From Patescibacteria group bacterium (lineage in GTDB: Bacteria; Patescibacteriota; Patescibacteriia; JBAZBY01), in NCBI GenBank assembly GCA_041671225.1, contig JBAZBY010000001.1:494940-558939 (forward strand): a stretch of DNA of 64,000 nucleotides. The letters run 5' to 3'. Under the pieces are notes generated by a model. That model was not told the DNA's origin, made no database searches, and saw only the letters and a list, made by a program, of their open reading frames with translations. Below are positions 44,206-62,400 of the stretch, piece after piece. Position 1 is the stretch's first letter. Each line of letters begins with the position of its first letter. The position numbers and the translations under genes are program-made.

Positions 44206-44219
44206 TCATTATCTCGCGT

Positions 44220-45575: not shown

Positions 45576-45577
45576 GT

Positions 45578-45877
45578 ATGAATATTTCGATCCCTCAGCC
45601 GGCATATCAGCCAGTAGTGCTTCTTCGTGCTGCAGGATATGCGCCATTTCGCGACCCAAAGACCGGTGAAGGTTCATTTGTGCGGCGACTTGGCACAGAA
45701 TTTTATCCGCGATTCCATATTTATGTGATAAAGGACACGGATGATGTTTTGGACCTTACGCTGCATTTGGATCAACGGCGCCCAAGCTATACTGGCAGCC
45801 GCGCACACAATGGTGAGTACGACGGACCGCAGATTGAGGCGGAGAGGACGAGGATTCTTTCACGTATTCCACAGTAA
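45578..45877 (+). CDS. Hypothetical small protein
   Basis: 99 aa ORF starting 3 nt after the upstream stop; no motif recognised. Confidence 0.4.
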   Translation: MNISIPQPAYQPVVLLRAAGYAPFRDPKTGEGSFVRRLGTEFYPRFHIYVIKDTDDVLDLTLHLDQRRPSYTGSRAHNGEYDGPQIEAERTRILSRIPQ

Positions 45878-45882
45878 GCAGC

Positions 45883-45911
45883 ATAAATATATTGCGGAGA
45901 TGCGGTGTTTT
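45883..45911 (+). promoter_or_regulatory. Promoter-like element with extended -10 (TTGCGG-17-TGgTATAAT)
   Basis: TTGCGG 45883-45888, 17-nt spacer, TATAAT 45906-45911 preceded by TGG. Confidence 0.4.
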
Positions 45912-46018
45912 TGGTATAATCAGCGCATACAACATGGATATTTTCATCTGCATTTCCTATAAAAATCCCGCAAAAGCAGATGAAAGGGGGCGGTACGGTT
46001 TTATGATGACTGCACTCG

Positions 46019-46046
46019 TCCCGGAAAGGCCGGGATTTCTTTTTTC
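46019..46046 (+). terminator. Rho-independent terminator (TCCCGG-AAAGG-CCGGGA then TTTCTTTTTT)
   Basis: Clean GC stem plus a run of T. It sits only about 100 nt downstream of the promoter at 45883-45911 and just before the gene at 46053. Confidence 0.6.
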
Positions 46047-46052
46047 AATCAA

Positions 46053-47912
46053 ATGATAGACGCAGCAACGCTTGCGACTATAGACCTCAAAACAACTGAG
46101 GGCGAGGAAGCAGTGCGCCGTATCGTTCATGATACGGTACGGTTTGGCGAGGCGCGAGCAGCGTTTCGTACTGCACAGGCACTGACCGTACGCATCAAGG
46201 GAGAAGGCACGCTTGAGAGGCAGTATGCTCAGTTATTAGCGCTTCTGAAGGCCGCGGCTCTCCCACTTTTAAGCGACGAAGGGGCGGTTACCGTCTTTGG
46301 GGAGTATTTACCGTATATTTTGAGTCAGCCGGATATTGACCTTATCCATGGTCTTCGCATGAGGGCGATTGGCATGCCAGAAGAGGATCTCCGCAGATTT
46401 TTTGCCGATGTCATAAGCGCAATGGCCGCAGCGCAGACTGCACTCACAGATGTGCCATTACAAATGGATGATGGTTCAGCGCGCCCACCAACACTTGCAA
46501 GCTGGATTATGGTTTTGCGCATCGCATTGCAAGACAGTTCCGCTGAAAAGGTTGCCTCAAGCCCGCTTCTTGAGAAGCTTACGGGTGAAGACAAGCAGAA
46601 GGTGCTGCGATTGACGCATCTTGTGGCCATTGTTGAGAAACTTGCCAAGGGCGAGATGCAGCCTGAAGGAATTATGATTCGTGAAGCAAATGGAAGCATG
46701 AAAGTGCTTTCAGAAGGTGGCGCTGTTCCGGTAATGGGAACCGCGCTTCCTGCAGCAGCACCTCTTCAAGAAGAACCGCCTCTACCCCAACCAGAACACA
46801 CAGAGCAACCAGCCGAGACTGTTCCAACACCAGAGCCAACACCAGAGCCAGAGGCGCCGCCCATTCCTGTTTCAAAACCAACACTTCCGCCTCAAGCGGT
46901 AGCCTCGCCAGCGGCTCCTGCTGAACTAGGTCCGATTGCACAAACGCAATATTCACTTGATGACGAAGAAGAGATCCAGCGGCACATGGAGCGTTTACGT
47001 GATATTGGAAGTGAGCCGTCCGCGGATCAGGTACTTGATGCAAAGGTTGCAGATTTGATACGCGAACAGAATCTGCAGTTTGATGATGAGAATCTGAAAA
47101 GTCGTTTTCAGATGATGATCAAAACATACATCAAGGGCATCCGTAATGGCGTAGAAACCGAAGAAATTCTTTGCCGCCCCGAAAAAATTGGCGGTATGGG
47201 ATATGACAAAGAGCAGGCGCACGCCATTATGGAATCAGCAAAGAAGCAGATTGCAAAACGCAAGGATGATGCCGGTGTGAGGGAACTTGTTGAGGAGGCG
47301 CGCACGATCGAAGAAGCTCCGGAGGGCATGCCATCTGCACCAACCATCCCTTCTGCGCCGCAAGTGCCCATCGTTCCTCCTATTGTCATGCCGGAAAAGC
47401 CAAAGATTGAGACAACAACGCAGAACATCCCAACATCAGTACCAGTTGTACCAGATCCACAAAAGAATGCGGGAGCATCTATCGAGAAACGGGCAGTGAC
47501 GTTTTCGCAATCCGGGGGGAGCGGACTTTTTCGCCGCGCACGTGGCCTGAAGCCGGCAGTGGACGATATTAAGGCACCAAAAAAATTAGCCGGTCCAACA
47601 GAGGAGATTCGCTCTATGTCATTAGAAGACTTTCAGAAGTTGGGACCAACGCCGCGAGATCGGGTTCAGAAACTTTTTAGCCGCTTTGTTTCACTCCAGA
47701 AGGAATCCTTTGCGTTGCGCATGGAAGGCGTGAGCGCCTGGCGCAAGAGCCCCGTGTACCAACAATATCTGGATATTGGCGGTGAGAGTATGAATACGAG
47801 TCAAAGTATTGCCGATGTTATTGCCGCCCGGGTACAAAAGGGTATGCCAACACTCACCACAGATGATTTTCATTATATTGCCGACTTAAACCGGCAGCTC
47901 CAGTTCCACTAA
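46053..47912 (+). CDS. Hypothetical protein with a central Pro-rich linker
   Basis: 619 aa; PEPTPEPEAPPIPVSKPTLPPQ linker between two alpha-rich regions. Confidence 0.6.
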   Translation: MIDAATLATIDLKTTEGEEAVRRIVHDTVRFGEARAAFRTAQALTVRIKGEGTLERQYAQLLALLKAAALPLLSDEGAVTVFGEYLPYILSQPDIDLIHGLRMRAIGMPEEDLRRFFADVISAMAAAQTALTDVPLQMDDGSARPPTLASWIMVLRIALQDSSAEKVASSPLLEKLTGEDKQKVLRLTHLVAIVEKLAKGEMQPEGIMIREANGSMKVLSEGGAVPVMGTALPAAAPLQEEPPLPQPEHTEQPAETVPTPEPTPEPEAPPIPVSKPTLPPQAVASPAAPAELGPIAQTQYSLDDEEEIQRHMERLRDIGSEPSADQVLDAKVADLIREQNLQFDDENLKSRFQMMIKTYIKGIRNGVETEEILCRPEKIGGMGYDKEQAHAIMESAKKQIAKRKDDAGVRELVEEARTIEEAPEGMPSAPTIPSAPQVPIVPPIVMPEKPKIETTTQNIPTSVPVVPDPQKNAGASIEKRAVTFSQSGGSGLFRRARGLKPAVDDIKAPKKLAGPTEEIRSMSLEDFQKLGPTPRDRVQKLFSRFVSLQKESFALRMEGVSAWRKSPVYQQYLDIGGESMNTSQSIADVIAARVQKGMPTLTTDDFHYIADLNRQLQFH

Positions 47913-47921
47913 GGAATATAT

Positions 47922-48383
47922 ATGCCAATGCAGTTCATCGTTCCGCAGTTCATCGATGTTGAGGATAAGATCCTTGGTCCTCTTTCTGTGCGGCAGTTTA
48001 TTATGTTTCTTGTGGGCGCGGCGCTTATTTATATCGACTATGAATTGATGTATCACCTTGCTGGTAATTTTTGGTTCTTTCTTGTTTCAGCGATTGCGCT
48101 CTTTGGACTTACGGGAGTGTTCGCCTTTTTGAGAATCAACGGCAGACCTTTTCATTGGTTTTTATTGGCGATCATCGTGAATTTTCGCGACCCAAAATTA
48201 CGTATCTGGTCAAAATATGTTCCGAACGACGAATTAAAGCGAAAGAAGGAAAAAATTGATAACGGACCGGATATTCCCATGAAGCCTGGCGTGACGCAAT
48301 CTCAGCTGCAACGTCTTGCGCTTATTGTGGATACCGGCGGCGCGTTTACTGATGATGTCCCCGAAAAAAAACCTAAGAGGTAA
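47922..48383 (+). CDS. VirB3/PrgI-like small membrane protein
   Basis: 153 aa with two TM helices (FIMFLVGAALIYIDYELMY; FWFFLVSAIALFGLTGVFAFL). Lies immediately upstream of VirB4, the conserved VirB3 position. Confidence 0.55.
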   Translation: MPMQFIVPQFIDVEDKILGPLSVRQFIMFLVGAALIYIDYELMYHLAGNFWFFLVSAIALFGLTGVFAFLRINGRPFHWFLLAIIVNFRDPKLRIWSKYVPNDELKRKKEKIDNGPDIPMKPGVTQSQLQRLALIVDTGGAFTDDVPEKKPKR

Positions 48384-48385
48384 TT

Positions 48386-49063
48386 ATGGAACGCAAACTA
48401 CGCAAACCAAAACAAGCATCGACACAAGAGTATCTTCGTATTCAGGAGATCAAGGATGATGTCGTGGTGATGAAGGACGGAAGTCTTCGCGGCGTTTTGC
48501 TTGTTGCGTCGGTAAACTTTGCCCTCAAGAGTGACGACGAGCAGATTGCCGTTATTCAGTCGTATACGCAGTTTTTGAATGCTCTTACGTTTCCCTTGCA
48601 AATCGTTATCCAATCGCGCAAATTGAATGTGGATGAGTATTTGAACCGTCTTCGTGAGGTTGAGAAAGCACAAACGAATGATTTACTGAAGATGCAGACG
48701 GCGGAGTACGTGCAGTATATTAAGGAGCTTGTGGAAATCGCCGACATTATGTCGAAGCGTTTTTATGTGGTGGTGCCGTTTTATCCAGGAGAGAACGAAC
48801 GAACGCCGGCGAAGTTTTTTGGACGTTTTTTTCAGGCATTGTCGCCAACAAGCATCATCCATCTGAAGCAAAAGCAGTTCATTGATTTGCGCACAGAACT
48901 CATGAAGCGCATTGATTATATCATTGAGGGTCTTTCTGAATCCGGCTTAAAAAGCGTTTTACTCAATACGCAGAGCCTCATTGAGCTTTATTACAATACC
49001 TATAATCCAGAAGTGTACAGCCAAGAGCAATTACTTGATGTTTCAAAGATTCAAATAGACTAA
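48386..49063 (+). CDS. VirB4/TraC/TrbE N-terminal domain (separate ORF)
   Basis: VLLVASVNFALKSDDEQIAVIQSYTQFLNALTFPLQIVIQS...RFYVVVPFY, typical of the VirB4 N-domain. Stops 1 nt before the ATPase ORF and is in a different frame. Confidence 0.7.
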   Translation: MERKLRKPKQASTQEYLRIQEIKDDVVVMKDGSLRGVLLVASVNFALKSDDEQIAVIQSYTQFLNALTFPLQIVIQSRKLNVDEYLNRLREVEKAQTNDLLKMQTAEYVQYIKELVEIADIMSKRFYVVVPFYPGENERTPAKFFGRFFQALSPTSIIHLKQKQFIDLRTELMKRIDYIIEGLSESGLKSVLLNTQSLIELYYNTYNPEVYSQEQLLDVSKIQID

Positions 49064-49064
49064 C

Positions 49065-51047
49065 ATGGCAGAAATCGACCTCTCCAAAGCAGGAAAGCTC
49101 CGCGAGCCTCAACGCAAGGTTTCTATTGAGGAGCGTCAGAAGCAGGAACAGCAACACCTGCAAAAGCAAAAACAACTTCTTGAAGCTGAGCGGTTGTATC
49201 GGGAGGGTGTTGTCTCCGTTCGTGATCTGATAGCCCCAGCCGCCATGAAGGTGGAAAATGATTATATTCGTTTGGGCAGCAAGTTTGTCCGTACGGTGTT
49301 TGTGGTGACGTATCCTCGCTATATTGCCGTTGGATGGTTTTCACCGATCATTACTCTGAACTATACATTGGATATTGGCATGTTCTTCTATCCTGTGGAT
49401 TCCGCGGTTATTTTAAAGCAGCTGAAGAATAAAGTCGGCGCTCTTGAGGCGCAGATTCTCGCCGATGCAGAAAAGGGTGCGCCGCGTGATCCTCTTCGTG
49501 AAACCGCGCTCCGCGACATTGAAAAACTCCGCGATGATCTCACCCAAGGCACAGAGAAGTTCTTTCAATATGCGCTCTATATCACCATCTATGCAGATGA
49601 TAAGAAAGACCTTGATCGTCAGACAGAAAAGGTAGAATCACTTTTTGGCGCACGACTGGTGTATACAAAGCGCGCGCTCTTTCAATCTGAACAGGGTTTT
49701 AATGCCACAGTGCCGATGGGAGAAGATGAACTCATGGTGACCTTCAACATGAATTCTTCGCCTGTTGCAAGTTCCTTCCCGTTCGTTTCAAGTGACCTCA
49801 CGAGTGATAACGGCATTCTTTACGGCATTAACCGCCATAATAACTCACTGATTCTTTTTGACCGCTTTAGCCTGCAGAATGCGAATTCCGTGGTGTTTGC
49901 AACCGCTGGCGCTGGAAAGAGTTATGCCGTGAAACTGGAGATCCTGCGTTCACTTATGCTTGGGACGGAAATCATTGTCATCGATCCTGAAATGGAATAC
50001 AAACATCTTTCTGAGGCGGTGGGCGGAACATATATTAGCATCTCACTCAACGCGGATTCCAAGATTAATCCTTTTGATCTCCCCAGTGCCCTGCAGGGTG
50101 ATGAAAAACCGGCTGATATCATCCGGTCCGCCGTCATCACGTTAAAATCGCTGCTGCGCCTCATGCTCGGCGAACTGACGCATGAAGAAGACTCCATCAT
50201 TGACCGCGCGTTGCTTGAAACGTATGCCAAGAAGGACATCACTCCGGATGCGGATCTTTCCAATATTGAAGCCCCGCTCATGACGGATTTTCAGGAAGTG
50301 CTTTCTGGCATGGAGGGCGCGGATGGATTAGTTGAACGTTTAAAAAAGTATACTGAGGGGACGTTCTCTGGCTTGTTTAATAGCCCGACGAATGTTGAAC
50401 TTAAGAATAATCTCGTCGTGTTCTCTGTGCGTGACCTTGAGGATGAACTGCGCCCGATCGGCATCTCAACGATTATTTCGTATATTTGGAATATCGCGCG
50501 CTCCAGGCTCAAGAAGCGTCTTTTAGTCATTGATGAAGCCTGGTGGCTGATGCAGCATGAAGACTCGGCAAAGTTTATCTACGCACTGGTCAAGCGCGCA
50601 CGAAAGTATTATTTGGGCGTTACCACCATTACGCAGGACGTGAATGACTTCTTACGTTCGCCATATGGCCAGGCCATCATTAACAACTCAGCCTTGCAGT
50701 TGCTCATGAAGCAGTCACGATCCGGGATCGATATTGTCGCCAAGACATTCATTCTCACAGAAGGTGAGAAGTATTTGTTGCTGGAATCCGGCGTTGGTGA
50801 AGGTATCTTCTTTGCCGGTTCTAAACACGCTGCGATCAAAGTTGTTGCTTCGTATACAGAAGATCAGATTATTACATCAGATCCGCGCCAGCTTCTTGAA
50901 ATTGAGGATGCAAAAAAAGAGTTTGAGGCATCATTGGATAGTAACGAGGAAGATGGTATTGAGGATATCTTTGATGCGGAAGAAAAATTGAACCCAATGA
51001 GTCCTGAAGAGCGGGAGATCCAGGAGATGCGTACTACAAAGCGATGA
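49065..51047 (+). CDS. VirB4-like type IV secretion ATPase (C-terminal ATPase domain)
   Basis: Walker A FATAGAGKSYAV and Walker B LLVIDEAWWLM. Conserved VirB4 blocks: YIRLGSKFVRTVFVVTYP, ITQDVNDFL. Confidence 0.85.
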   Translation: MAEIDLSKAGKLREPQRKVSIEERQKQEQQHLQKQKQLLEAERLYREGVVSVRDLIAPAAMKVENDYIRLGSKFVRTVFVVTYPRYIAVGWFSPIITLNYTLDIGMFFYPVDSAVILKQLKNKVGALEAQILADAEKGAPRDPLRETALRDIEKLRDDLTQGTEKFFQYALYITIYADDKKDLDRQTEKVESLFGARLVYTKRALFQSEQGFNATVPMGEDELMVTFNMNSSPVASSFPFVSSDLTSDNGILYGINRHNNSLILFDRFSLQNANSVVFATAGAGKSYAVKLEILRSLMLGTEIIVIDPEMEYKHLSEAVGGTYISISLNADSKINPFDLPSALQGDEKPADIIRSAVITLKSLLRLMLGELTHEEDSIIDRALLETYAKKDITPDADLSNIEAPLMTDFQEVLSGMEGADGLVERLKKYTEGTFSGLFNSPTNVELKNNLVVFSVRDLEDELRPIGISTIISYIWNIARSRLKKRLLVIDEAWWLMQHEDSAKFIYALVKRARKYYLGVTTITQDVNDFLRSPYGQAIINNSALQLLMKQSRSGIDIVAKTFILTEGEKYLLLESGVGEGIFFAGSKHAAIKVVASYTEDQIITSDPRQLLEIEDAKKEFEASLDSNEEDGIEDIFDAEEKLNPMSPEEREIQEMRTTKR

Positions 51048-51619
51048 GTCCCGCCATCCGTATTACACTGATTTTTGTGAGTATTATCCTTGTTGGGGGG
51101 ATCGGACTCGGTTTACTGCTCTTTAAAGATTCATCACCAGACACCGTTCAGGACACTCTTCCGGAGAACGAAGATGTCGTGCCTGCGACGACACCGACAA
51201 ATTCCAGTATATCGGAGGATGCGCCCGTTATTGAACCAGAGGCGAATACGACGCAGCAGATTCGCAACGTTGCCATCATTTTTTCAGAACGTTTTGAAAG
51301 CTATAATGAAAACGCGCGCGAAGCAGTGCTCCCCAGCGTTCAAGCGTATCTCACGGATGCAAGCCTTGTGACGCTCACAAGAGAGGCCGAATATCTTGCT
51401 ACACAGCCGAATGTTGAAAAGCCGAACGTCTACACTGCTCAAGCGTTCAATGTTTCCATTGTTGATGAGCAGCCAGCTCGGGCAACGGTTGATGTTTCAC
51501 TTTTTGTAGAAACTTCTATAGGAGCGTCAATTGAGGTGACCTCTACGGAGCAACGTACACGACGATATATCCTTATCCAAGAAAATGAGAACTGGAAAAT
51601 AATAAATGCCATTTTCTAA
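51044..51619 (+). CDS. Bitopic membrane protein, candidate VirB8-like (NTF2-like) component
   Basis: N-terminal TM helix IRITLIFVSIILVGGIGLGLLLF followed by about a 150-aa mixed alpha/beta domain ending ...ENENWKIINAIF. Position and topology are consistent with VirB8 (low confidence). Confidence 0.45.
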   Translation: MSPAIRITLIFVSIILVGGIGLGLLLFKDSSPDTVQDTLPENEDVVPATTPTNSSISEDAPVIEPEANTTQQIRNVAIIFSERFESYNENAREAVLPSVQAYLTDASLVTLTREAEYLATQPNVEKPNVYTAQAFNVSIVDEQPARATVDVSLFVETSIGASIEVTSTEQRTRRYILIQENENWKIINAIF

Positions 51620-52916
51620 GCGCGCCATCTTAACTTTTCTTCTCCTGCTTTTGGCGGTACTTTTTCTTGTGCCTGCAGGAGATGTGCATGCACAAGAACA
51701 CGAGATTCAGTTGAGCGTGGATCTGCCCGGCACGTCGCCATGCAGCTATGATGCAACAAAAAAATGTGTTGCGGATTTTGGTGATTATATGGCGAACTTT
51801 TACCGCTGGTTTGTGAGCGTTTCTGGCGTGCTTGCGATCGCAATGCTTGTGATGGGCGGATTCATGTGGATAACCGCAACAGGAAACAGCAGCAAAATCG
51901 AATCCGCAAAGGATGTGATTAACAGTGCGCTTTCTGGCGTGGTTCTTTTGATGCTTTCTTTTTTGTTCTTGCAACTCATCAACCCGCAGATTCTTTCATT
52001 GCGTCTTCCTATTCCCGGCATCACGGGTAGCGATTTTTTTCTTGATAGTACGATACTGTGCAACGGCCGTGCGATATTGGAAGACAGGGATACGGCGACC
52101 TGCGGGGACATTGTGTCCTTAGACATTGCAACAGCGGTTGGCGTGAAACAGCCTTGTATCTGGAATGAATGCAAAGATCCAAAGGAAGTCTGCGCGCCTA
52201 ATCCAAAAGTAGGGAAATATGAATGCCTGACTCCGATCAAGGGCTGCACGTACTCAAAACCAAAGGATTGCCAGGCAGTTGACCTTATTTTTCAAAATAC
52301 CGTACCTCCCGTGACTGAAGGGGGGAAAGTGTTTTCCTGCCGCACGCGTAACCTCACAGATGCCATTCCTCTTATTGGGTATGAAGATGACTGCAGCCCT
52401 GGCCCAATATGGTCAACATATGCGCCTCTTCCCGTAAAAGACCTGGTTGATAGCCGTATTGCGGATTCTGGGTATCAATGTGGTGATGACGCAGACTGGA
52501 TGCGCGTTACGTGCGATGCCGGTAAAGGAAGAAAAACAGAGTGTTGGCGTCCGGATGATGGTGGTCCGAGAGAGGAAACAAAGAGCATTAATGATCCATG
52601 GTGGGCGCAGTTGGATAACCATATGGCTGTTTCCTATATCAAGGCACGCTTAACATGCACAGATGCTGCACGGGCGAATCAAACGTCAGACATGGTTTGC
52701 TGCGGTCAGCGCGATAAAGGTCAGATTGATTGTCGGGGTATTGAAGAAAAAATCGATGAGAATGAAATTGCCGTACCTTGTGATTATTACAATACCCTGA
52801 CTGACGAGTATGACGGAAAACTTTCTACGAATAGCAAAGCAAAAGATAAGAACGCCACACGAGACTGGTGTGATGATATTTGCTTTATGCAAATAGATAT
52901 TAAATTTGGGCTCTAA
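51606..52916 (+). CDS. VirB2/TrbC-like pilin-motif protein fused to a large Cys-rich extracellular domain
   Basis: Signal peptide, then the hairpin-helix motif WFVSVSGVLAIAMLVMGGFMWITATGNSSKIESAKDVINSALSGVVLLMLSFLFLQLINP. About 280 aa Cys-rich C-terminal region. Confidence 0.65.
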   Translation: MPFSKRAILTFLLLLLAVLFLVPAGDVHAQEHEIQLSVDLPGTSPCSYDATKKCVADFGDYMANFYRWFVSVSGVLAIAMLVMGGFMWITATGNSSKIESAKDVINSALSGVVLLMLSFLFLQLINPQILSLRLPIPGITGSDFFLDSTILCNGRAILEDRDTATCGDIVSLDIATAVGVKQPCIWNECKDPKEVCAPNPKVGKYECLTPIKGCTYSKPKDCQAVDLIFQNTVPPVTEGGKVFSCRTRNLTDAIPLIGYEDDCSPGPIWSTYAPLPVKDLVDSRIADSGYQCGDDADWMRVTCDAGKGRKTECWRPDDGGPREETKSINDPWWAQLDNHMAVSYIKARLTCTDAARANQTSDMVCCGQRDKGQIDCRGIEEKIDENEIAVPCDYYNTLTDEYDGKLSTNSKAKDKNATRDWCDDICFMQIDIKFGL

Positions 52917-52919
52917 AAT

Positions 52920-54167
52920 ATGAATCGTTCACGGCTTCAGACGCTTCTCTATTTGGCGGCATTCATCATCACCGTTTTGCTTTTCATATTTGCGATATAT
53001 TGGTTGTTTTTTAGGACCGCTCCATCCACAAATACAAATGACAATGCAAACGAAAACGTGAATGGCTTGCCGAACGTGAATGCGGCAAATTTCAATGTCA
53101 ATGGAAACGCAAATGCGAATATTGCCTTACCGAATGTGAATACCACCGATCTCATAGATCGCATTGCTCAGGGCGGTTTCACACAGACCAACCTCGTTAC
53201 GGAAAATGCCGTCATTGCTCCAAGTTTTGGATCGAACGATCAGGATCTTGTTTTTTACGACACCGCTGAAGATAAGTTTTATCGTCGTACGCAAGATGGA
53301 CGTTCACAAACATTGCTCACTGAAGAGACCTTCCCCGAGGTTGAGTCGATAGCATGGTCACCAACAGGCGATAGGGCGGTGCTCACATTCCCTGATGACA
53401 CAAAACTCTATTATAACTTTGCCACGCAAGAGAAGGCGACGCTGCCAAAGGAGTTGAATGATATTTCTTTCTCGCAACAGGGCACGCAGATCGCCTCAAA
53501 GTTCGTAGGATCAGAAACCACTGATACGTGGCTGACGGTCTCGAATCCAGACGGAACAGGCGCAGAGATCCTTGAAAGCCTTGGTGAGAATGAAAGTCTT
53601 GTGGACGTCAACTGGTCGCCAACGCAACAAGTCGTGGCAACGTATCACCGCGGGACATCCTTTGATGCCGAAGAGGTTATTTTTCTTGGCAAAGAGGGAG
53701 AGAATTTCCCTTCCGTGAATGTACCCGGCCGCGGTTTTGAAGGAATTTGGAGCAGCGATGGACGGAAGATGCTCTATTCTGTGTACGCCCCTGAGACGCG
53801 CAACGTCCCGCAGATCTATTTTATGGATGCATCGGGGGATAATTTTGGCACAAATCATCAGACACTTGCACTTGAAACATGGGCGGACAAATGCACTTTC
53901 TCGCTTACCGGTACGAATGTGTATTGTGCGGTGCCGAACTTCTTGCCAAGCAGCTCCGGTTTTGACCGTGCACTTGCATTAGGTATCCCGGATGATATCT
54001 ATAAAATTGATCTTATCAATGGGCGCGCGGACAGAATCGCAACGCCGGTTGATTCCCGCGGCCTTGCAACCGTTACTGCTTCTGACCTTCTCGTTTCTCC
54101 TGCTGAAGATGTGCTGTATTTCAAAAGCGAGAGTGACGGGAAAGTTTATACCCTTAATCTTCGATAA
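52920..54167 (+). CDS. TolB-like beta-propeller protein with N-terminal TM anchor and Asn-rich low-complexity linker
   Basis: TM helix LYLAAFIITVLLFIFAIYWLFF. NVN-type repeats NANENVNGLPNVNAANFNVNGNANANIALPNVN. PD40/TolB-like blades (WSPTGDRAVLTF, WSPTQQVVATYH, WSSDGRKMLYSV). Confidence 0.7.
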   Translation: MNRSRLQTLLYLAAFIITVLLFIFAIYWLFFRTAPSTNTNDNANENVNGLPNVNAANFNVNGNANANIALPNVNTTDLIDRIAQGGFTQTNLVTENAVIAPSFGSNDQDLVFYDTAEDKFYRRTQDGRSQTLLTEETFPEVESIAWSPTGDRAVLTFPDDTKLYYNFATQEKATLPKELNDISFSQQGTQIASKFVGSETTDTWLTVSNPDGTGAEILESLGENESLVDVNWSPTQQVVATYHRGTSFDAEEVIFLGKEGENFPSVNVPGRGFEGIWSSDGRKMLYSVYAPETRNVPQIYFMDASGDNFGTNHQTLALETWADKCTFSLTGTNVYCAVPNFLPSSSGFDRALALGIPDDIYKIDLINGRADRIATPVDSRGLATVTASDLLVSPAEDVLYFKSESDGKVYTLNLR

Positions 54168-54264
54168 GTGCGCGATTCACTCACTGGCTATCTTCTTATC
54201 GCGATCGGCGCACTCTTCTTGCTCATACTGATTGTGCAACAATTTAAGTCGGCCTCATGATATT

Positions 54265-55551
54265 ATGAAACGTTCTCTCCTTTTTATCTCTTTTTTCATA
54301 CTTGTCGGCCTTAGTTTTGCGAGGCCGGTTTTTGCAGAGGGGTGTTGCGTGGGGCCAACGGCAGCATATTTTCTTTTTGATAATAATCAATGCCTTAATG
54401 AGGCCTCACCTCCTGGCCGCTGGGATGCGCATCAGTACCCGGACAGCATAACAGGCAAGTGCGAGCTGATGGTTGGCGCGGACGAGAGGGCGCTCGTTAT
54501 TGGTAAGTCCATTGCGACTCAGGTTGCAGAAAAGCCCCCGCTTATTTTTATTCCGAGCGTTGAGATACCGGGACTCTTCACTGGCCCCATTGTGGTTGGC
54601 AATGAGACATTAGGGCAGTATATCGCGGCGTTTTATATGTTTTTTGTCGGTCTCACGGGAGTGCTCGCAATGGCTATGTTGGTTTATTCTGGATTCCGGC
54701 GCATTACGGCAGCAGGGAACTCAAGCAAAGTACAGGAATCAACAGATATCATGAATGCCGCGCTTTCAGGCGTGGTACTGGTGATGCTCTCATATTTGCT
54801 GCTCAATCTCATTAATCCAGCACTGACGCGTCTTGCGGGCATGCAGCTTGATCCCATTAAGCCGGTATTGTTTTCATTTGAATCATCGGCTCATTCATTG
54901 AGGGACGCGAGTGTTTGCGGTGTTGGGGTGAACCCCGCAACAGGGGAACTTGTCGGTTTTCAGGATGATATTTATGAGTATGATGATATTTTTAAGGAGG
55001 TTGGTGATGCAAAAGGGGTGATGCCAAGCCTTTTAAAGGCGATCATGATAGTAGAGTCATGTGGGGATCCAGATGCAGCAAGCGTTCTGGAAGATGGTAC
55101 AAATGGCGGATGTGGTCTTATGCAGGTGAATCCAAAAAACAACACAACGGGCGGTTCTGGTTGTGACGGTCTCAGAACACCCGCAATTGAACCGACAGAT
55201 TCTGACGCCGTTAAAGAAGCAAAGCTAAAAATCATCAAAGCGAATATCACGCGTGGCGCAGAGATTATTGTACACGCGTATAAAAAAACATGTCCAGAAA
55301 CGGCGCGATATGAGTCTGGTGAAGTTGTGCAGTGCGATCATCAAAAGAGTGGCTGTATTGTGGGTGCTGATCGTTATGCCATTGCTGCGTATAATGGAGG
55401 CACTGGTGCAAATTGTAACAGCAGTGATTGTCAGGGAGAGACTTGGTGGGAGTGTAAGAATAATGATGGTTTTGCAGCAACACGACAGTATGTATCGAGT
55501 ATTGTGGCAGCGCACAATATGATCAGAAATAGAAATTGGATTCCGGATTAA
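54265..55551 (+). CDS. Pilin-motif protein fused to a lytic transglycosylase (SLT, VirB1-like) domain
   Basis: Signal peptide MKRSLLFISFFILVGLSFARPVFA. Pilin motif FFVGLTGVLAMAMLVYSGFRRITAAGNSSKVQESTDIMNAALSGVVLVMLSYLLLNLINP, paralogous to 51606-52916. SLT catalytic motifs IVESCGDPDAAS...GGCGLMQVNP. Confidence 0.75.
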   Translation: MKRSLLFISFFILVGLSFARPVFAEGCCVGPTAAYFLFDNNQCLNEASPPGRWDAHQYPDSITGKCELMVGADERALVIGKSIATQVAEKPPLIFIPSVEIPGLFTGPIVVGNETLGQYIAAFYMFFVGLTGVLAMAMLVYSGFRRITAAGNSSKVQESTDIMNAALSGVVLVMLSYLLLNLINPALTRLAGMQLDPIKPVLFSFESSAHSLRDASVCGVGVNPATGELVGFQDDIYEYDDIFKEVGDAKGVMPSLLKAIMIVESCGDPDAASVLEDGTNGGCGLMQVNPKNNTTGGSGCDGLRTPAIEPTDSDAVKEAKLKIIKANITRGAEIIVHAYKKTCPETARYESGEVVQCDHQKSGCIVGADRYAIAAYNGGTGANCNSSDCQGETWWECKNNDGFAATRQYVSSIVAAHNMIRNRNWIPD

Positions 55552-56655
55552 AAGAAGGAGGCGGGCCAAGGGTTTGAACCTTGTGTTACCCGCCATCGTA
55601 TCTAGCGCCCCGTAAGGGGAGAGTGCCGTGAGATTGGCCTGTGCGCTCGCAAGGAGCGCTGTTTCAGGCACGTATCAGGCGCCTCTTTCGCTGTTTGTGC
55701 TGTTGTGTGGGGTTTGGCGGCTACGTCGTGTTGCTGAATCTAGGATGACCCGTCTTCCTCACACTGTTTGGGAGTCCCTACCGTTCGTCGCCGCGACCAG
55801 AGTGGTAGCGACGCCGGTGCGGATGTCCCGGACCCATGAGGGCGCCGGTGTACCCCAGGGAGGATTCCCTAGGGTGCGCTCCGCTTCCGGACAGTACCAG
55901 CTCGGCATCGGCGGCGCCCAGCCTCTTGCTCTCGTTGCCGGGAAGATCCAGTGTCCGCGTCGGCAGCTGGCGCGGCTTCGGCTCGAGCCGCAACCCTTCC
56001 TGCGGGATGTCAGTTCCGGTGAGGAAACCTTCCCGTTGGAGGACTTCGTGCTCGGCCATTACGCCAGGACCGAAAGCGGGGTAGATGATGCGCGGTTTGG
56101 CCACGCTCGGGTCAGTGAGACCCCAGCGCAGCGTCCGCGACATCGGTTGATCGCTTCCGTGTACCAGTCCGGTCTGACTGCAGACCAGCCGCGCAGAACC
56201 TTTCGGTTCTGGCACCGCGAACCCGAAACCCAGGGTTCCGATACAGCAGCGGTGTCCGCTGCCTGTGTCGTGCCCCGGGCATTGGTCACCCGACTTGAGA
56301 GACTTCTTTTTTTCCATCTGCTTTGAACCTTTTCGCGTGTTGAGGGTTGTCACGCCATACTTCACTACCCTTTCTTTTTTTTGGAGGTATGACGCTGTTG
56401 CGTTGCGTGGAATCCCTCCCTTGCTCATTTGAGTGGAAGGGGAAAAGGGGGAGCACGCCGAAAATGTTCGGAGGGCAACTCCCATGATGTCCGCTGGGCG
56501 GTTCAAGACCCTAAACATCATGAGAAGAACACTTCTCGGGCATGCTCCCAAAGATTGGGAACAAAGCAACACGAAGTAGCTTTCAAGGTGCGCTTTGTGT
56601 TTGCATGGACTATACGAGAAAGAGGATATTTGTCAAGTTGAACCCTGGTCTCTTC
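55552..56655. other. GC-rich 1.1-kb segment without a convincing gene, between the convergent T4SS-like operon and recG; nature unresolved
   Basis: Only mutually antisense, Arg/Gly/Pro-rich ORFs (55628-56326 +, 55778-56572 -) typical of GC-rich non-coding DNA. Composition is clearly GC-richer than flanking genes by eye. Begins with a 35-nt GC hairpin (55560-55594). Confidence 0.3.
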
Positions 56656-58722
56656 CTACTCAAAATGCGTTTGAATGGTGCGCTGCTGTAGCACTGCCTT
56701 GAGCGCAGGATACTGTTCAAGTTCAGGATCTTGTTTAAGCAGCGCATCGGCATCCTGCTGCGCCGCGGCGATGAGGTCGCTGTTCGTGAGATGCGCGAGC
56801 GTCTCGCCACTGTAGCCGGATTGGTTCTTCCCGAATATTTCGCCCGGCCCTCGCAGTTCAAGATCCTTCTCAGCGAGGGTGAATCCATCCAGAGTATGTT
56901 CCATGAGTCGCAGACGTTCCAGCGCGCCGCGATTTTTTTGATCTGTCGCAAGATAGCAGAATGCCTCCTGCCCTGCGCGCCCGATGCGCCCGCGCAATTG
57001 GTGCAGCTGCGCAAGGCCAAAACGTTCCGCTCCTTCAATGAGCATGAACGATGCATCCGGCACATCAATGCCCACTTCAATAACCGACGTTGTGACAAGA
57101 ATGTGATTCTCTCCGCGCGCAAATCGATCCAACACGTTCTGTTTTTCATCCGGTTTCATGCGTCCATGCAGCAAGCTTAATTCTTTTTCAGGGAATATAT
57201 CAGCGAGTGTTTTGAACTCCTCGGTTGCCGCCCGCACGCCGAGCGTGTCAGACGGGTCAATAATAGGGTAGACAACAAAGCATTGTTTGCCACGGGAAAC
57301 CATTTCCTTCATTTTTGTAAAAGCGTGTTCTCGTTCTTCCCCCGGAAGCGCTTTTGTCGTAATGCGTTTTTCTCCGGTCGGGAGTTCTTTGATAAGCGTG
57401 AGATCAAGGTCGCCGTAGATAGTGAGCGCGAGTGAACGCGGAATCGGCGTTGCGGTCATTGAGAGGAAGTGCGGGACGCTCCCATGCCGTTCCATCGCCT
57501 GCTCGCGTAATATTTTGCGCTGTTCCACGCCAAAGCGATGTTGTTCATCAATGACAATAAGCCCAAGTTTTTTAAAACGCATACGCTCATTGAGCAAAGC
57601 GTGCGTCCCAACAAGAATATTCACGTTGCCGTCCCGCACTGCTTGTTCAAGCTCTGTGCGAGGCACCTCCCTGCCATTCAGTCTTGCGGTGCCTCCGGTC
57701 ACAAGCCCAAGCGAGAGGCCGTGTTCTTTGACGTGTTCGGTAAAACGCTCTGCATGCTGGCGGGCCAGTATCTCCGTCGGCGCAAGCAATGCACCTTGGA
57801 ATCCGGCTTTTGCAGAGGAAAAGAGCACGATTTCAGCCACAAGCGTTTTGCCTGAGCCAACATCACCTTGCAGCAAGCGGTTCATTGGGCGGGGCTGCTC
57901 CATGTCTTGCAGGATCTTCCATGCAGCTTTGCGTTGATCGTTCGTGAGATCAAAGGAGAACTGCTGCAAGAATGTTTTAATGGCATCGTCATCGTGCGCA
58001 ATTGCATGCGCGGGCAACGTCTTAAGTAGTTTTTTTGCTTTGACAACCGCAAGTTGAATGAAAAAGAGCTCCTCATAGGTAAAGCGCGCTTTTGCTTTTT
58101 TGAGTGCTTCCATGCTCTCTGGAAAGTGGATTGCGCGTACGGCTTCACCGCGGCTAGGGAAGTGCTGCTTGGCCATGATGTTTTCTGGGAGCACCTCGGG
58201 CAACATATCCGCAGCAGGCAATACCTTTTGAATAAAGGTACGGATTGTTTTAACGGTAAGATCCTTTTTTGTTGCATAGACCGGCACAATGCGTCCCACA
58301 TGCGCTTGATCCTCTTTTTCCTTCTCCCACGCTGGTGATGCCATAGAGAGTTTTCCAAATCTGTAGTGTGCCTTTCCAGAGCAGAGAAGGGTATCACCCT
58401 GCTTTACGACATGCGTGAGGTATGGCTGATTGAACCAAAGGACGCTGATGCTGCCTGAATCATCAGAGAGAATCGCCTCGGTCATGCGCATGCGCCTGTT
58501 TTTTGTTGTGCGGTTTACAATAGATTTTACTGTCCCGCGTATCGTAACAGTCGTTTCAGGAGTGACGTCGTTTATCTGCACCGTTTCAGAAAAGTCATCA
58601 TAACGAAAGGGGAAGTGCCAAAGCAGATCCTCAAAAGTCAAAAAACCCGCTTCCGCAAACTTAGCCACGGTAGCTTTGTGGATGCGCGGAATGTTGGCGA
58701 TAAGTGCTTGGGCTTGCGTCAC
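56656..58722 (-). CDS. recG: ATP-dependent DNA helicase RecG
   Basis: Wedge/OB domain, helicase motifs GDVGSGKT and DEQHRFG, C-terminal RecG-specific region. Confidence 0.95.
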   Translation of the reverse strand: MTQAQALIANIPRIHKATVAKFAEAGFLTFEDLLWHFPFRYDDFSETVQINDVTPETTVTIRGTVKSIVNRTTKNRRMRMTEAILSDDSGSISVLWFNQPYLTHVVKQGDTLLCSGKAHYRFGKLSMASPAWEKEKEDQAHVGRIVPVYATKKDLTVKTIRTFIQKVLPAADMLPEVLPENIMAKQHFPSRGEAVRAIHFPESMEALKKAKARFTYEELFFIQLAVVKAKKLLKTLPAHAIAHDDDAIKTFLQQFSFDLTNDQRKAAWKILQDMEQPRPMNRLLQGDVGSGKTLVAEIVLFSSAKAGFQGALLAPTEILARQHAERFTEHVKEHGLSLGLVTGGTARLNGREVPRTELEQAVRDGNVNILVGTHALLNERMRFKKLGLIVIDEQHRFGVEQRKILREQAMERHGSVPHFLSMTATPIPRSLALTIYGDLDLTLIKELPTGEKRITTKALPGEEREHAFTKMKEMVSRGKQCFVVYPIIDPSDTLGVRAATEEFKTLADIFPEKELSLLHGRMKPDEKQNVLDRFARGENHILVTTSVIEVGIDVPDASFMLIEGAERFGLAQLHQLRGRIGRAGQEAFCYLATDQKNRGALERLRLMEHTLDGFTLAEKDLELRGPGEIFGKNQSGYSGETLAHLTNSDLIAAAQQDADALLKQDPELEQYPALKAVLQQRTIQTHFE

Positions 58723-58935
58723 CGGGTTATTGTAGCGCAGTCATGCAAAACGTAACATGGCAGTCTTCGCCCAGGGGTCCCCGCAAACGGGGTGCGCAGG
58801 GAGCGTAGGATTGAGTGAGTGTAGCGAGCGAAATCCGTTAAGCGCGACCGTGTCCCAGTTTGTGGGGTATAACGAGGCTTTATGCGAAAGCCGCAGTCCC
58901 GCTCGGCGGGACGAAGGCTGAAGCATAAAACGATG

Positions 58936-58954
58936 TGGTGCGCCCGGCAGGATT
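58936..58954 (-). other. tRNA 3'-end-like fragment (17/19 identity to the tRNA-Arg 3' end incl. CCA), about 100 bp downstream of the tRNA
   Basis: tggtgcgcccggcaggatt versus tggtgtccccggcaggatt at 59052-59070. Confidence 0.4.
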
Positions 58955-59051
58955 TGCACTCCGCCTTCGGCGGAGTACTCGCGTTACGACGAGCACATAC
59001 GACCGCTCGCGCCGCAGGCGCGAGCCATCACGCCCCCAATAGGCCACCTTT

Positions 59052-59128
59052 TGGTGTCCCCGGCAGGATTCGAACCTGCGACCTCAGGCTCCGCAAGCCT
59101 GCGCTCTATCCAACTGAGCTACGAGGAC
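59052..59128 (-). tRNA. tRNA-Arg (anticodon GCG)
   Basis: 77-nt cloverleaf: GTCCTCG-TA-GCTC-AGTTGGATA-GAGC-G-CAGGC-TTGCGGA-GCCTG-AGGTC-GCAGG-TTCGAAT-CCTGC-CGGGGAC-A-CCA. 7-bp acceptor stem, A20 in the D-loop, encoded CCA. The D- and T-arms closely resemble canonical bacterial tRNA-Arg. Confidence 0.85.
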
Positions 59129-59192
59129 ATCAAAAAGTGGCTATCTGCGCTACATTCCAAATCCAATGATTAAAAGAAAGGGGCGTGATGAG

Positions 59193-59220
59193 CAGGCTCC
59201 GCAAGCCTGCGCTCTATCCA
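59193..59220 (-). repeat. 28-bp perfect direct repeat of the internal tRNA-Arg segment 59085-59112 (D-loop/D-stem through anticodon stem-loop); att-like tRNA fragment
   Basis: caggctccgcaagcctgcgctctatcca occurs inside the tRNA and again about 80 bp beyond its 5' end. Confidence 0.8.
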
Positions 59221-59328
59221 GCTGCCCGGCAGAGCCGGGTCCGGCTTTGCCGGAAGCTACGGGCGCATATCACCAAGGCACTATAGAGAAGAATCCATCT
59301 CTATGCAAGGATACGCGCATTTTTGTGT

Positions 59329-59357
59329 TTGACCAAAGCGTAAATTTGTGCTACAAT
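59329..59357 (+). promoter_or_regulatory. Sigma70-like promoter (TTGACC-17-TACAAT) upstream of the Kelch-repeat giant gene
   Basis: TTGACC 59329-59334, spacer 17, TACAAT 59352-59357. Lies in an AT-rich tract preceding the GC-rich gene. Confidence 0.5.
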
Positions 59358-59447
59358 AATCTTGATTTTTCAGATAAAAAATTTGAAAAACCTTATTTTT
59401 TGGGAGACTTTTTTGCCTTTATCTCCCTATGTATCGTATTGTCGGGA

Positions 59448-62400
59448 ATGAAAAAAACAAGGGGGAAGAGGAAAAAGCACACAATACCTGCACAACGCAT
59501 GCGGCGCACGCCATTGGCGCACCGGCGGCGTCGCGCACCGGCAGGTCAAATACAGCAGATAGCTGGAGCATTCTTGTCGCGGGTTCGCGCGTTGCGCACC
59601 GCACTCATTATCATTGCCATCCTTTCGTTGGGTGGTTTTTTTGCATTCCAATACATCACCACATATGCCGTTTCTGACAGCGTCACCATCTCATCACAAA
59701 CGGAATGGGAAGCTGGCGAGTACTGGAAGAATCAGCTGAATACCACCAACGCCGCAGGGGATCTTTCCATCGCATCCGGAGGCGTTGGTTCATGGGATCT
59801 GACAATGCCGAGCTTCCCAGAAGACACCCGAGGGTATTTTGCATACGGCCAGGAGCCCGCGGATCTTGGTACGGACCTCACGACCGATGGAACATATCTC
59901 TATATGATCATCGGCGGACGCCAGCCGGAGCTCTTCCGCTACAATCCGGAACTGGGAACATGGAAGCAGCTTGCAGATGCACCGACGGATTTCTATGACG
60001 CAGGAGCGCTCACCTATTACGACGGGTATCTGTATGCAACGAACGGGCATGATGGTTTGACGACGACGGATGCCGCAGGCGAGCTCTGGCGTTATGATAT
60101 TGCCGGAGACGCGTGGGCGAAGATGGCAAGCGCTCCGAGCGTCTGGGGTAGTACTGCAGTAGGCGGCGCAGACATTGAAAGCGGCAACAACGGAAAGCTG
60201 TATGCCGTGCAAGGCCATGCGCAGGCGCCGTTCTGGATCTATGACATCGCATCCAACACATGGGCAGACGGTCCAACCGTTCCGGACCCTATTTCCACGG
60301 CCAACAGCCACGCATTGGTCTATTCCGATGTCTCGTTCGGTACTGATCCGGTGTACTGTGAAACGGGGTGTATCTATGCGTTTTTGGGCAACAGCAGGAC
60401 GTTCCTTCGATATGACATCAGCATGAACCAGTGGTACTCGAGCTTCGCAGATGTTCCGGCGGCGCTCGGGAACGTCACAACTGGTAGTGCGCTTGCGTTT
60501 GATGCCGCAAATGATGATCTCTACGCGTTCCGCGGCGGTTCAACGGAATTCATGAAGTATGACATCGATAATCCGGGAACATGGGATGCGGCAACGCTCA
60601 CCACGCCCAACACCCAGCGCAACGTGACGACAGGCGCATCGCTCGTGTACCTTGACGGATACATCTATGGAACGCTGGGGGGCGTGCCGGAACTGGTGCG
60701 GTATGACGTTGGGAATGGCCGGTGGGATGCCGTTGTTGCGCAGAACGCGACCGGCACCAATTCCGGCGATCTGGTGGTGTATGTTCCGGATAACGTCACG
60801 GCAGGGTGTACGGATGATTCCGGGTGTTTGTTCGTTGCCCAGGGAGGCGGTACGGGATTGCGCAGATATGACATCGGCGCGCGCGCGTGGTCTGCGGCGC
60901 TCACCGTGGTTCCTGCCGCGTTCGGGCTGAACGGCACCATGTGCTTTGACGGCACGAATACCATCTATATGGCGCGCGCGGGCAACCAGACCATGGTGTA
61001 CCCGTACAGCATCAGCGGGAACAGTTACGGTACCACCATCACTGCGCCCGGAGCGGTTCAGCAGGGTGCGGGCATCGTTTGCACGGCAGCGAACCGCTTT
61101 TATCTTTTGCGCGGCAATGCGACGAACAGCTTCTATTATTACAACGGAACGACACTCGCGGCAGATGACAACATCCCCGCAGCGGCAGTGGGTTACGGCG
61201 GCGGGCTTTCCTGGGATGGCACATATGTCTATGCTCTTGCTGGCGATCGGCGCGGCAATTTCTACCGCTTTGATCCCTCGCAGGGTTCCGGATCGCGCTG
61301 GAGCGTGATGAACAACCTTCCGACCACCGCGTACTATGTATCGTCTTTGGAGTACGACGGCGCCGGGAACATCTATGTCATCCCAGGGCAATATGAAAAG
61401 GATTTTTGGCGCTATGACGTTTCAGAGAATTCTTGGAGCCGTGCAAGCGAATTACCGCAACGTTTTGGGTATGCGCACGGATTGGCCTATGACAGCGCTG
61501 CCGGCAAGATATGGGTCCTGCGCGGAGGCGCGCCAAGCACGAACAGCGTCGGGTTCCATATGTTCACACCGGAAGCGCATGCATACATTCCATCCGCAAC
61601 ATGGATCTCCGCTCCGATCGATCTTGATTATGTGAGTTCATTTACGGATCTGACCGCAACCACCACGACCCCCGGAGGCACGAGCGTCGCATATGTAACG
61701 CGCACGTCGGATGACAGCGTGAGCTGGTCGGATTGGGCAACAGTTGTTGGCGGGGCCATTGCTTCGCCGGCCAACCGGTACATGCAGGTGAAGGCAACGC
61801 TCACATCGGATGATACCAACACGCCGACGCTCTCGGATTTCACCATTACGTATGAGCGCGATTCAACCGATCCGATACAGCCGAGCATCGTTGGGTATGA
61901 TACCAGCGCAAAAGCCGCCACGCTGACCACGGGCAATTCATATTACTATACGAATCCGTATTTTGAATTTTCCGACGCAACGGATTCTGATTCACGCGTC
62001 ACCGGGTATTACGTTTCATGGACGACCAATGCGAGCCATAATCCGGCGAGCAGCGAAGACTACTTCCAGACCGCGGAGACATATTCCGTGCAAACGCCGC
62101 TCGCGGCCGGCAGCACATACTCCTTGCGCGTCGCAACAAAGGATGCCGCAGGCAACGTGACAGACGCTGAGACGAAGTTCACGTATACGTATACCGGCAT
62201 CTCTCCAGCAGCAACAAAGCAGTGGTCATCCCAGGCGGAGTTTGCCGCGGGTACGGTGAGCAATGTGAGCACATCCGCAAACGCGGGGAACGTCCAGCTC
62301 TCCGCCATGGCGAACGGCGCATGGGCCAATGAAGCGCCGACGAACCTCAACTTGACGACCGGTTCAGGAGCGTCAATGGTGTTCAACGGCAATGACACGG

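Follow-up and report, generated by a model that had tools for sequence, protein, structure and literature searches.

In the 64,000-nt stretch of Patescibacteria DNA analyzed here (contig JBAZBY010000001.1; hereafter the window), a gene for tRNA-Arg(GCG) lies in a 725-nt gap between recG on one side and the gene for a Kelch-repeat giant protein on the other, and is accompanied on both sides by pieces of tRNA sequence. A first-pass annotation of this DNA had described these pieces as partial copies of the intact gene and as the marks of a likely integration hot spot. We propose instead that the locus is a composite transcription unit in which a live tRNA-Arg(GCG) sits between the two ends of an older tRNA-Arg(GCG), and that the arrangement is an old recombination scar, a reading to which we give slightly better than even credence. 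We refer to the intact gene as the inner gene and to the broken one as the outer gene; their parts, and the other features of the window that are discussed below, are listed in Table 1.

The two fragments themselves point to a second allele. The upstream fragment had been reported as a 28-bp repeat of the D-stem and anticodon segment. This repeat is real, since 59193-59224 matches bases 59085-59116 of the inner gene at 31 of 32 positions (28 exact bases) and no comparable match arose in 100 shuffles, but it is only a portion of what is present. Beyond a 30-nt insertion (59225-59254), the sequence at 59255-59266 resumes the tRNA in register and carries it back to position 1, and the upstream piece is the whole 5' part of a tRNA, positions 1-43 (59266-59255 plus 59224-59193), with 36/37 identity to the inner gene over positions 8-43. 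On the other side, the 17/19 match of 58936-58954 to the inner 3' end, also reported earlier, was reproduced and extends to 19/23 with the T loop included (58936-58958). The outer acceptor strands, GCGCCCG (59266-59260) and CGGGCGC (58940-58946), can form seven of seven Watson-Crick pairs with each other, whereas crossed pairing leaves two mismatches between the outer 5' and inner 3' strands, and one mismatch plus two G.U pairs between the inner 5' and outer 3' strands. Because the acceptor strands of the two fragments pair completely with one another and mismatch those of the inner gene (GTCCTCG/CGGGGAC), the fragments are evidently the two ends of one second tRNA-Arg(GCG) allele and not copies of the intact gene. 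The sequence GCGCCTG, which had been suggested as the acceptor partner of the 3' fragment, lies in the 5' arm of a 9-bp hairpin (59005-59025) and is a poorer partner than the GCGCCCG identified here.

Reconstruction of the outer gene points in the same direction. With its ends joined by 14 nt taken from the inner gene, it is recognized by ARAGORN as a clean tRNA-Arg(GCG); if the 30-nt insertion, a double hairpin, is kept in the same reconstruction, nothing is called. The outer acceptor allele also exists as a live gene in a distant relative, at the locus that we designate L036 (RecG identity 46%; other loci from relatives are numbered likewise), to which the outer gene is identical at 42 of 44 bases over positions 1-44 and at 20 of 23 in the 3' piece. 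The two differences in the 5' part amount to one compensated pair, and without the double hairpin the outer D arm reads GCTCAGCTGGATAGAGC, as in L036. In its present form the outer gene elicits no call from ARAGORN or Rfam, with the inner gene alone being detected, and it would be unable to make a tRNA because the variable loop and the 5' strand of the T stem are gone and the D arm is interrupted. Two independent Logan assemblies, from two further samples of the same population, are 100% identical to the window over 50534-59253 and 44265-59253 and show no variant of the arrangement. With three identical assemblies, an assembly artefact was therefore rejected as the source of the nested arrangement.

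The description of the inner gene as an intact 77-nt tRNA-Arg(GCG) on the minus strand (59052-59128) is borne out by ARAGORN and Rfam alike, and it is 74/77 identical to its orthologue in L042 and 71/77 identical to that in L043. A scan of the window at the Rfam gathering thresholds and a scan of 55400-59700 at E <= 1 returned nothing but this tRNA. The inner gene looks like a mosaic, with ends that match the type found in L028 (7/7 and 32/34) and an anticodon arm that is identical to that of the outer gene. Since inner-type acceptors occur in L042 and L043 and the outer type occurs in L036, both allele types are old. These comparisons bear on a simpler origin for the locus, namely a local tandem duplication (or triplication) of the resident gene followed by deletions, in which no foreign DNA took part and the middle copy stayed alive. 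Such a history might explain the near-identity of outer and inner positions 8-43 and the short similarity between the junctions (GCGGAG..TGC, at 59193-59204 and 58958-58967), and a precedent might be seen in L031, where exact tandem 333-nt repeats include the 5' part of a tRNA. It would require, however, five acceptor-base changes in the live copy, two fully compensated pairs among them, and none in the dead copies, which would have stayed complementary to each other; it sits poorly with the age of both alleles; and the two spacers that separate the inner gene from the outer pieces (x, of 64 nt, and y, of 93 nt) are unrelated to each other. We regard a purely local duplication as unlikely.

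The corresponding loci of the closest relatives give an indication of the age of the composite. Identities among the RecG proteins yield the tree (window,(L042,L043)). L042, the relative at 66% RecG identity, contains a decayed composite that consists of a promoter, GCGCCCG, an inner-type tRNA (74/77), hairpins B and A of the window and a degraded piece of T loop and acceptor 3' strand. In L043 a promoter stands directly before an inner-type tRNA and there are no outer pieces. A third locus, L044, which was found by a metagenome scan with a 32-mer (the other matches being mostly to unrelated bacteria), combines an inner-type tRNA with a downstream 3' piece of the outer type, 21/23 identical to that of the window. 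The comparison with relatives thus yields a divided answer, in that L043 lacks the outer pieces, L042 carries the composite in decayed form and L044 the outer-type 3' piece. The composite is probably old, because L042 has a decayed copy of it; it might be either old, with one gain and one loss, or have been made repeatedly, and parsimony does not separate these histories. As a separate observation, the whole tRNA-Arg unit is inverted relative to recG in L042 (tRNA at 872-948) and L043 (tRNA at 800-876) as compared with the window, and its other neighbor in both is a gene of the DUF6232 family, which is absent from the window.

The proposal that the fragments are footprints of integrase-mediated insertion and excision is partly supported as history and not as a description of a current hot spot. 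The fragments are bounded where the anticodon stem ends and within the T loop, sites that are reportedly (Williams 2002, NAR) the classical crossover sublocations of tRNA-targeting recombinases, and the direct repeat running from the T loop to the 3' end by which a duplicated attachment (att) site is recognized is present at 58936-58958 (19/23); the 5' fragment is an extra piece that has no part in that definition. Mobile-element DNA with an integrase between or beside the repeats, by which such a duplication is also recognized, does not occur within the 64-kb window, nor does a third copy of either repeat at up to three mismatches. The search for an integrase gene yielded nothing near the tRNA, the only tyrosine recombinase in the 64 kb being encoded by an Xer-type gene 54 kb away; no other recombinase was found in the 64-kb window by tblastn with Xer.

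For these reasons we consider it decidedly unlikely that the locus is an active integration hot spot whose att sites belong to an integrase-bearing element that reaches beyond the window or is transient in the population. In addition to the positions of the fragment boundaries, such an interpretation could draw on the 3'-end copies that lie behind conserved modules at several Patescibacteria tRNAs (one module family occurring at both Glu and Gly genes), on the absence of outer pieces from L043 and on the GC-richness of the downstream gene. No integrase, phage or transfer genes adjoin the tRNA, however, its flanks being recG, which is a phylum-conserved neighbor, and the Kelch-repeat gene, which has a promoter of its own. 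Moreover, the upstream 5' fragment weighs against integration at the 3' end because such integration leaves none upstream, the fragments belong to another allele, the arrangement is identical in two other samples and no repeat brackets a full-size element at the tRNAs surveyed. An integrated element was likewise rejected for the wider neighborhood, in which neither an integrase near the tRNA nor a third copy was found in 64 kb and the genes resembling a type IV secretion system (T4SS) are, with recG, conserved neighbors in relatives. The first-pass annotation had allowed that a lack of any integrase or att partner, together with the same arrangement in relatives, would argue for old decayed remnants or coincidence, and for the 64 kb and the relatives compared this is largely what was found. 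There is no gene-bearing mobile element at the locus today.

The 30-nt interruption of the outer D arm is a discrete element. It is made of two tandem 15-nt units, in this copy T-CCGGC-AAA-GCCGG-A and C-CCGGC-TCT-GCCGG-G (59225-59254), each unit having the format of a T, one strand of a 5-bp stem, a 3-nt loop, the complementary 5 bases and an A. The format is constant, and the stem sequence varies freely between copies through different compensated stems; what the copies share is format and not sequence. Two copies occur in the window as against 0.03 expected. The second is in frame in the Xer-type gene, where it adds about 10 residues (APRGAGSGSA) to a surface loop; precisely these 30 nt are absent from the closest homologue (P0122, 76% identity; L055), there is a gap at the loop concerned in solved XerA-type structures, and no target duplication is evident. 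Further in-frame copies, coding for SASGRSPEGR, are found in recG of L019 (4254-4283) and L033 (7009-7038), and an additional copy lies at 486-513 of L033; a hairpin match inside recG of L043 was dismissed as ordinary coding sequence. In L012 and L031 the double hairpin stands between positions 35 and 36 of displaced 5' halves of tRNA-Glu, and nearly every displaced tRNA 5' half that we have seen carries one. Single 15-nt units of the same format occur as well; the window contains eight all-GC hairpins with 5-bp stems, of which five lie within 58898-59254. The element is thus a palindromic unit found at several unrelated sites, in frame in genes and absent from the closest orthologue, as are the Rickettsia palindromic elements (RPEs).

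Two side observations concern the same element. At one end of L043 (1-190, minus strand) there is a tRNA-Ser(GCT)-like copy whose D loop contains a 30-nt double hairpin and whose T loop is broken; the hairpin TGCGCC-AAA-GGCGCA and CCA come next, and an intact tRNA-Ser just downstream is cut by the contig end. The Logan contigs L057 and L058, which come from different samples, both end at 59253, inside the double hairpin of the tRNA locus, although they are independent, and the element probably disrupts assembly or sequencing.

The composite may be transcribed as a unit from a promoter-like site upstream of the outer 5' end. Homologous sites in the corresponding position are TTGATT-17-TATAGT in L042, followed 14 nt later by the same GCGCCCG, and TTGCTT-17-TATCAT in L043, 10 nt before its tRNA. 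Because the site in the window scores below the -35 threshold of the promoter scan, we only infer a promoter function for it. Neither the 64-nt nor the 93-nt spacer contains a gene, no convincing promoter was found in spacer x by inspection and no terminator-like site was found anywhere in the 725-nt gap. The imperfect palindrome at 58879-58929, centered on a 15-nt hairpin unit (T-CCCGC-TCG-GCGGG-A, 58897-58911), is not scored as a terminator because it has no T run. Spacer x cannot be aligned with L042. Its longer inverted repeat with spacer y (59190-59180 with 59036-59026) is 11/11 complementary, and a miniature inverted-repeat transposable element carrying the tRNA between terminal inverted repeats was considered and rejected, as the 11-bp repeat is barely beyond chance (about 0.1 expected in 900 nt by our estimate) and is not conserved in L042.

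When the 331-nt unit is folded and compared with shuffled sequences, it gives z = -7.9, a value that is inflated by the perfect GC hairpins. The predicted fold nests the outer acceptor pairing, the 11-bp inverted repeat, a shorter helix between leader and trailer, and the inner cloverleaf. A leader/trailer helix is present in L042 too, of unrelated sequence, and hairpin B in L042 has three stem changes, all of which keep the pairing through G.U on the tRNA-sense strand only. Taken with the unusually good preservation of the outer 5' half and 3' piece and with the presence of one double hairpin in nearly every displaced 5' half, these properties might be those of a selected RNA device, in which the inner tRNA would depend on the outer tRNA-like shell, with hairpins set into its loops, and on the nested stems for control of its processing, stability or expression, or in which a functional RNA resembling a tRNA half would be made. 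We think this rather improbable, since L043 works without any outer part and the outer parts of L042 have decayed, since the shell is without a T stem and hence not tRNA-shaped, since only two or three sequences are available in which covariation could show, since the perfect GC hairpins inflate the z-score, and since the occurrence of the same hairpin units in protein loops fits selfish insertions.

The complementarity of the outer halves, and the GC-rich 11-bp stem that brackets the insert, also recall the split tRNA genes of Nanoarchaeum. Archaea (Nanoarchaeum, Thermoproteales) have split and multi-intron tRNA genes, and the window resembles the archaeal split genes in having separated 5' and 3' parts with a GC-rich complementary stem near the break. 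We nevertheless give hardly any weight to a reading of the outer halves as exons of a tRNA that is split or contains an intron, whether of the archaeal type with a bulge-helix-bulge (BHB) motif or with a group I intron. The joined halves lack essential parts, the variable loop and the T-stem 5' strand, and form no complete cloverleaf; by inspection no BHB (3-nt bulges spaced by a 4-bp helix) occurs at the junctions of positions 12/13 and 43/57 or around the 30-nt hairpin; and, unlike in the archaeal genes, a whole tRNA with the same specificity is encoded in the intervening DNA. The scan of 55400-59700 at E <= 1 gave no match to Intron_gpI or to any other Rfam family besides the tRNA, the break falls after the anticodon stem and not in the anticodon loop, where a group I intron would be expected, and the host is a bacterium with sigma-70-type promoters and RecG. 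The group I, BHB-intron and split-tRNA readings were accordingly all rejected, because parts are missing and the motif is absent.

Comparable arrangements are found elsewhere in the phylum. The 587 kb of fetched DNA contain 134 tRNAs, and several of those from Patescibacteria are accompanied by partial copies of themselves within 60-300 nt. The tRNA-Glu of L012 has a 5' half with a double hairpin upstream and a T-loop-to-3' copy downstream. The tRNA-Glu of L031 is preceded by two exact tandem 333-nt units (11723-12460, minus strand), each composed of positions 1-35, a double hairpin, positions 36-41, a 140-nt spacer and a 123-nt upstream region with a promoter, a pattern that would be expected of a Campbell-type event. 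Copies of the 3' end lie within 60-180 nt of the tRNA genes L028-Arg, L035-Gly, L012-Ile and L037-Glu, and the stretches that separate a tRNA from its copy form conserved families, in which the hairpins covary. Family 2 is a conserved structured module of ~110 nt between tRNA-Glu or tRNA-Gly and the 3'-end copy (L012 5823-5931, L022 10674-10787, L035 2963-3078), with the order GAAGACCGCAG, hairpin, GCGAGGGGC, long hairpin, CGAYTCCC; its hairpins covary and, at Glu and Gly genes alike, it always abuts the T-loop sequence CGAYTCCC. No Rfam match was found to the tRNA-associated modules. All partial copies outside tRNA genes are within 500 nt of their own tRNA, except for the second tandem unit of L031 (628 nt) and a single 15-nt match in L041, and therefore no repeat brackets an element of full size. 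No account of nested or flanked tRNA genes in Patescibacteria, or of hairpins of this kind in the phylum, turned up in searches of the literature. As a further observation from the survey, a second module, GGGAATCGAACGGGGAAGGGGTCGGGAAACGGGAGTTTCCCGTG...AGTGAGATAG, occurs after the terminator behind tRNA-Ile and tRNA-Glu (L012 2530-2665, L037 2900-3064), and 15 nt of the tRNA 3' end are repeated behind it.

What unites these cases across the phylum is recombination inside tRNA genes at the two classical sublocations. At the locus in the window, the old recombination scar that we favor would have begun with recombination in the resident gene, where the anticodon stem ends and within the T loop; this would have brought in short, gene-less DNA with replacement tRNA sequence and pushed the resident gene's own ends outwards as scars. 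The DNA might have arrived as one ~234-nt cassette that held a whole tRNA, in a single nested insertion, or through two separate Campbell-type events whose cores lay at about positions 8-43 and 58-69. These origins are equally possible; the mosaic nature of the inner gene, with its L028-type ends and outer-like anticodon arm, fits the two Campbell-type events. Small GC-rich hairpin units would have accumulated in the dispensable parts, and the outer shell would now serve as leader and trailer of the live tRNA. A transcript from the old promoter is expected to cover the dead 5' half, the 64-nt spacer, the live tRNA and the hairpin-rich trailer of 93 nt, and ordinary tRNA end-processing would release the inner tRNA. 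If restored, the outer gene would read ...GGAGCCTG, variable loop and T stem, ...AATCCTGCCGGGCGCACCA, and an excised circle would carry the junction between GGCGGAGTGC and CTCATCACGCC.

Several considerations weigh against this account. A neutral relic older than the split between the window and L042 should decay, as it did in L042, yet the outer 5' half in the window is still flawless and both acceptor strands still match. One gain with one loss is no more parsimonious than two independent gains. A two-step origin implies an intermediate tRNA whose acceptor stem was mismatched, we know of no enzyme that would carry out a one-step nested insertion, and no recombinase is assigned to the proposed events. 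The leader/trailer pairing in the window and L042, and the G.U-preserving changes of hairpin B, hint at selection at the level of RNA, for which a mere scar would have no need. In view of the preservation of the outer halves, the recurrence of the double hairpin and the unassigned enzyme, we allow a functional-RNA or mobile-module reading roughly one chance in four.

A more far-reaching scenario, which we offer tentatively and as a minority possibility, is that of an undescribed, Patescibacteria-wide system of tRNA-gene turnover. Mini-modules without genes would recombine inside tRNA genes, in the anticodon arm and in the T loop, and supply replacement ends for the tRNA, 5' modules carrying a promoter and 3' modules a conserved, covarying structured body, and the double hairpin, which would insert in frame into proteins as well, would mark or disable the displaced halves. 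Under such a scenario the locus in the window would be a well-preserved example, and its outer shell may remain under selection in the pre-tRNA.

With respect to the surroundings of the locus, the best relatives of its RecG are in metagenome-assembled genomes of Patescibacteria (36-46% identity among species representatives), and a tRNA-Arg(GCG) adjoining recG is an arrangement conserved in this group. In many Patescibacteria loci the Arg tRNA beside recG has the anticodon GCG and not ACG; since such GCG tRNAs recur and the fetched loci showed no tRNA gene with ACG, inosine at position 34 may not be needed for reading CGY codons. A T4SS-like cluster adjoins recG (window ~44000-55551) and includes PrgI, TraC-like, VirB4/TraG-like ATPase, pilin-like and SLT genes, the SLT neighbor being kept in L043. 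Between the SLT/pilin gene and recG are ~1.1 kb (55560-56650, GC 0.55) with a single unsupported open reading frame of 247-284 aa; neither Pfam nor Rfam gave a match to this interval, and it does not resemble the corresponding gaps of L042 and L043. A TACAAT sequence (58729-58734) lies only 6 nt upstream of the GTG start of recG (58720-58722), and the similar arrangement in L042 (~1094-1110) and L043 (~925-944) suggests that the recG mRNA may be leaderless.

Table 1. Coordinates of the tRNA-Arg(GCG) locus and associated features in the window
Feature	Position	Strand	Remarks
Inner tRNA-Arg(GCG), intact	59052-59128	minus	77 nt, CCA encoded; ARAGORN and Rfam (71.5 bits)
Outer tRNA, positions 1-12	59255-59266	minus	Acceptor 5' strand GCGCCCG, then TAGCT; same as the live L036 gene over these bases
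Outer tRNA, positions 13-43	59193-59224	minus	D loop, D-stem 3' strand, complete anticodon arm, anticodon GCG
Outer tRNA, 3' piece	58936-58958	minus	T-loop remnant TGCAAAT, T-stem 3' strand CCTGC, acceptor 3' strand CGGGCGC, A73, CCA
Double hairpin in outer tRNA	59225-59254	minus	30 nt, GC-rich, between positions 12 and 13
Double hairpin, second copy	4202-4231	minus	In frame in the Xer-type recombinase gene (3941-4912)
Promoter-like site	59280-59308	minus	TTGCAT-17 nt-TATAGT; ends 13 nt before the outer 5' end
Spacer x	59129-59192	minus	64 nt, outer 5' part to inner tRNA; left arms of two inverted repeats
Inverted-repeat left arm CATCACGCCCC	59180-59190		In spacer x
Inverted-repeat left arm ATAGCCAC	near 59137-59144		In spacer x
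Spacer y	58959-59051	minus	93 nt; right arms of the inverted repeats, including GGGGCGTGATG at 59026-59036
Hairpin B	59005-59025		9 bp, in spacer y; conserved in L042
Hairpin A	58958-58976		15-nt unit TCCGCCGAAGGCGGA, present too in the L012 double hairpin
Imperfect palindrome	58879-58929		24-nt arms; just past the outer 3' end
recG	56656-58722	minus	
Promoter of Kelch-repeat gene	59329-59357		Own promoter of that gene
Kelch-repeat giant protein gene	starts 59448	plus	Extends past the window end
Xer-type tyrosine recombinase gene	3941-4912	minus	Conserved S15/NYN/PNPase context, common to relatives

The features of the locus can be compared with those of several known systems. It resembles the partial tRNA copies (attL/attR) of tyrosine integrases in having direct partial copies beside an intact gene, boundaries in the T loop and anticodon arm, and a displaced piece that differs slightly from the live gene, as when the alleles of element and host differ. 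It is unlike them in having no element or integrase between the copies, spacers of only 64 and 93 nt, a 5' fragment upstream, ends of another allele that are complementary to each other, and a probable origin by inheritance and not by a recent event. Cis-mobilizable elements (CIMEs) are att-flanked remnants without recombination genes. As in CIMEs, gene-less DNA is bounded here by att-like repeats at a tRNA, and related modules occur at different tRNAs (family 2, at Glu and Gly); unlike CIMEs, the Patescibacteria modules measure tens to hundreds of bases and not kilobases and contain covarying hairpins. CIMEs and decayed islands have been reviewed (PMC5704250).

The nearest known counterparts of the 30-nt double hairpin are the RPEs (PMC1779305) and the double-hairpin and repetitive hairpin elements of mitochondria (PMC2800124). 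All are short palindromic insertions that occur between genes, in RNA genes and in frame in protein genes, that are missing from some orthologues and that are not removed from transcripts. The element in the window differs from the RPEs in its size (30 nt as opposed to 100-150 bp), and from both groups in its fixed format of two 15-nt units with free stem sequence, in its Patescibacteria host and in being strikingly tied to displaced tRNA 5' halves. It is a compact counterpart of the RPEs in another lineage with reduced genomes, and could account for some of the short insertions in Patescibacteria proteins.

Partial copies of tRNA genes are routinely read as signs of genomic islands or prophages. 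An automatic island call at this locus would be wrong, because here the copies would mark an old allele replacement of which no element is left. The tRNA genes of Patescibacteria, the genomes of which are roughly 1 Mb in size, appear to be mostly single-copy, and the recurrence of the same anatomy at further tRNA loci in the phylum suggests a repeated rebuilding of essential tRNA genes in these bacteria by recombination within the gene.

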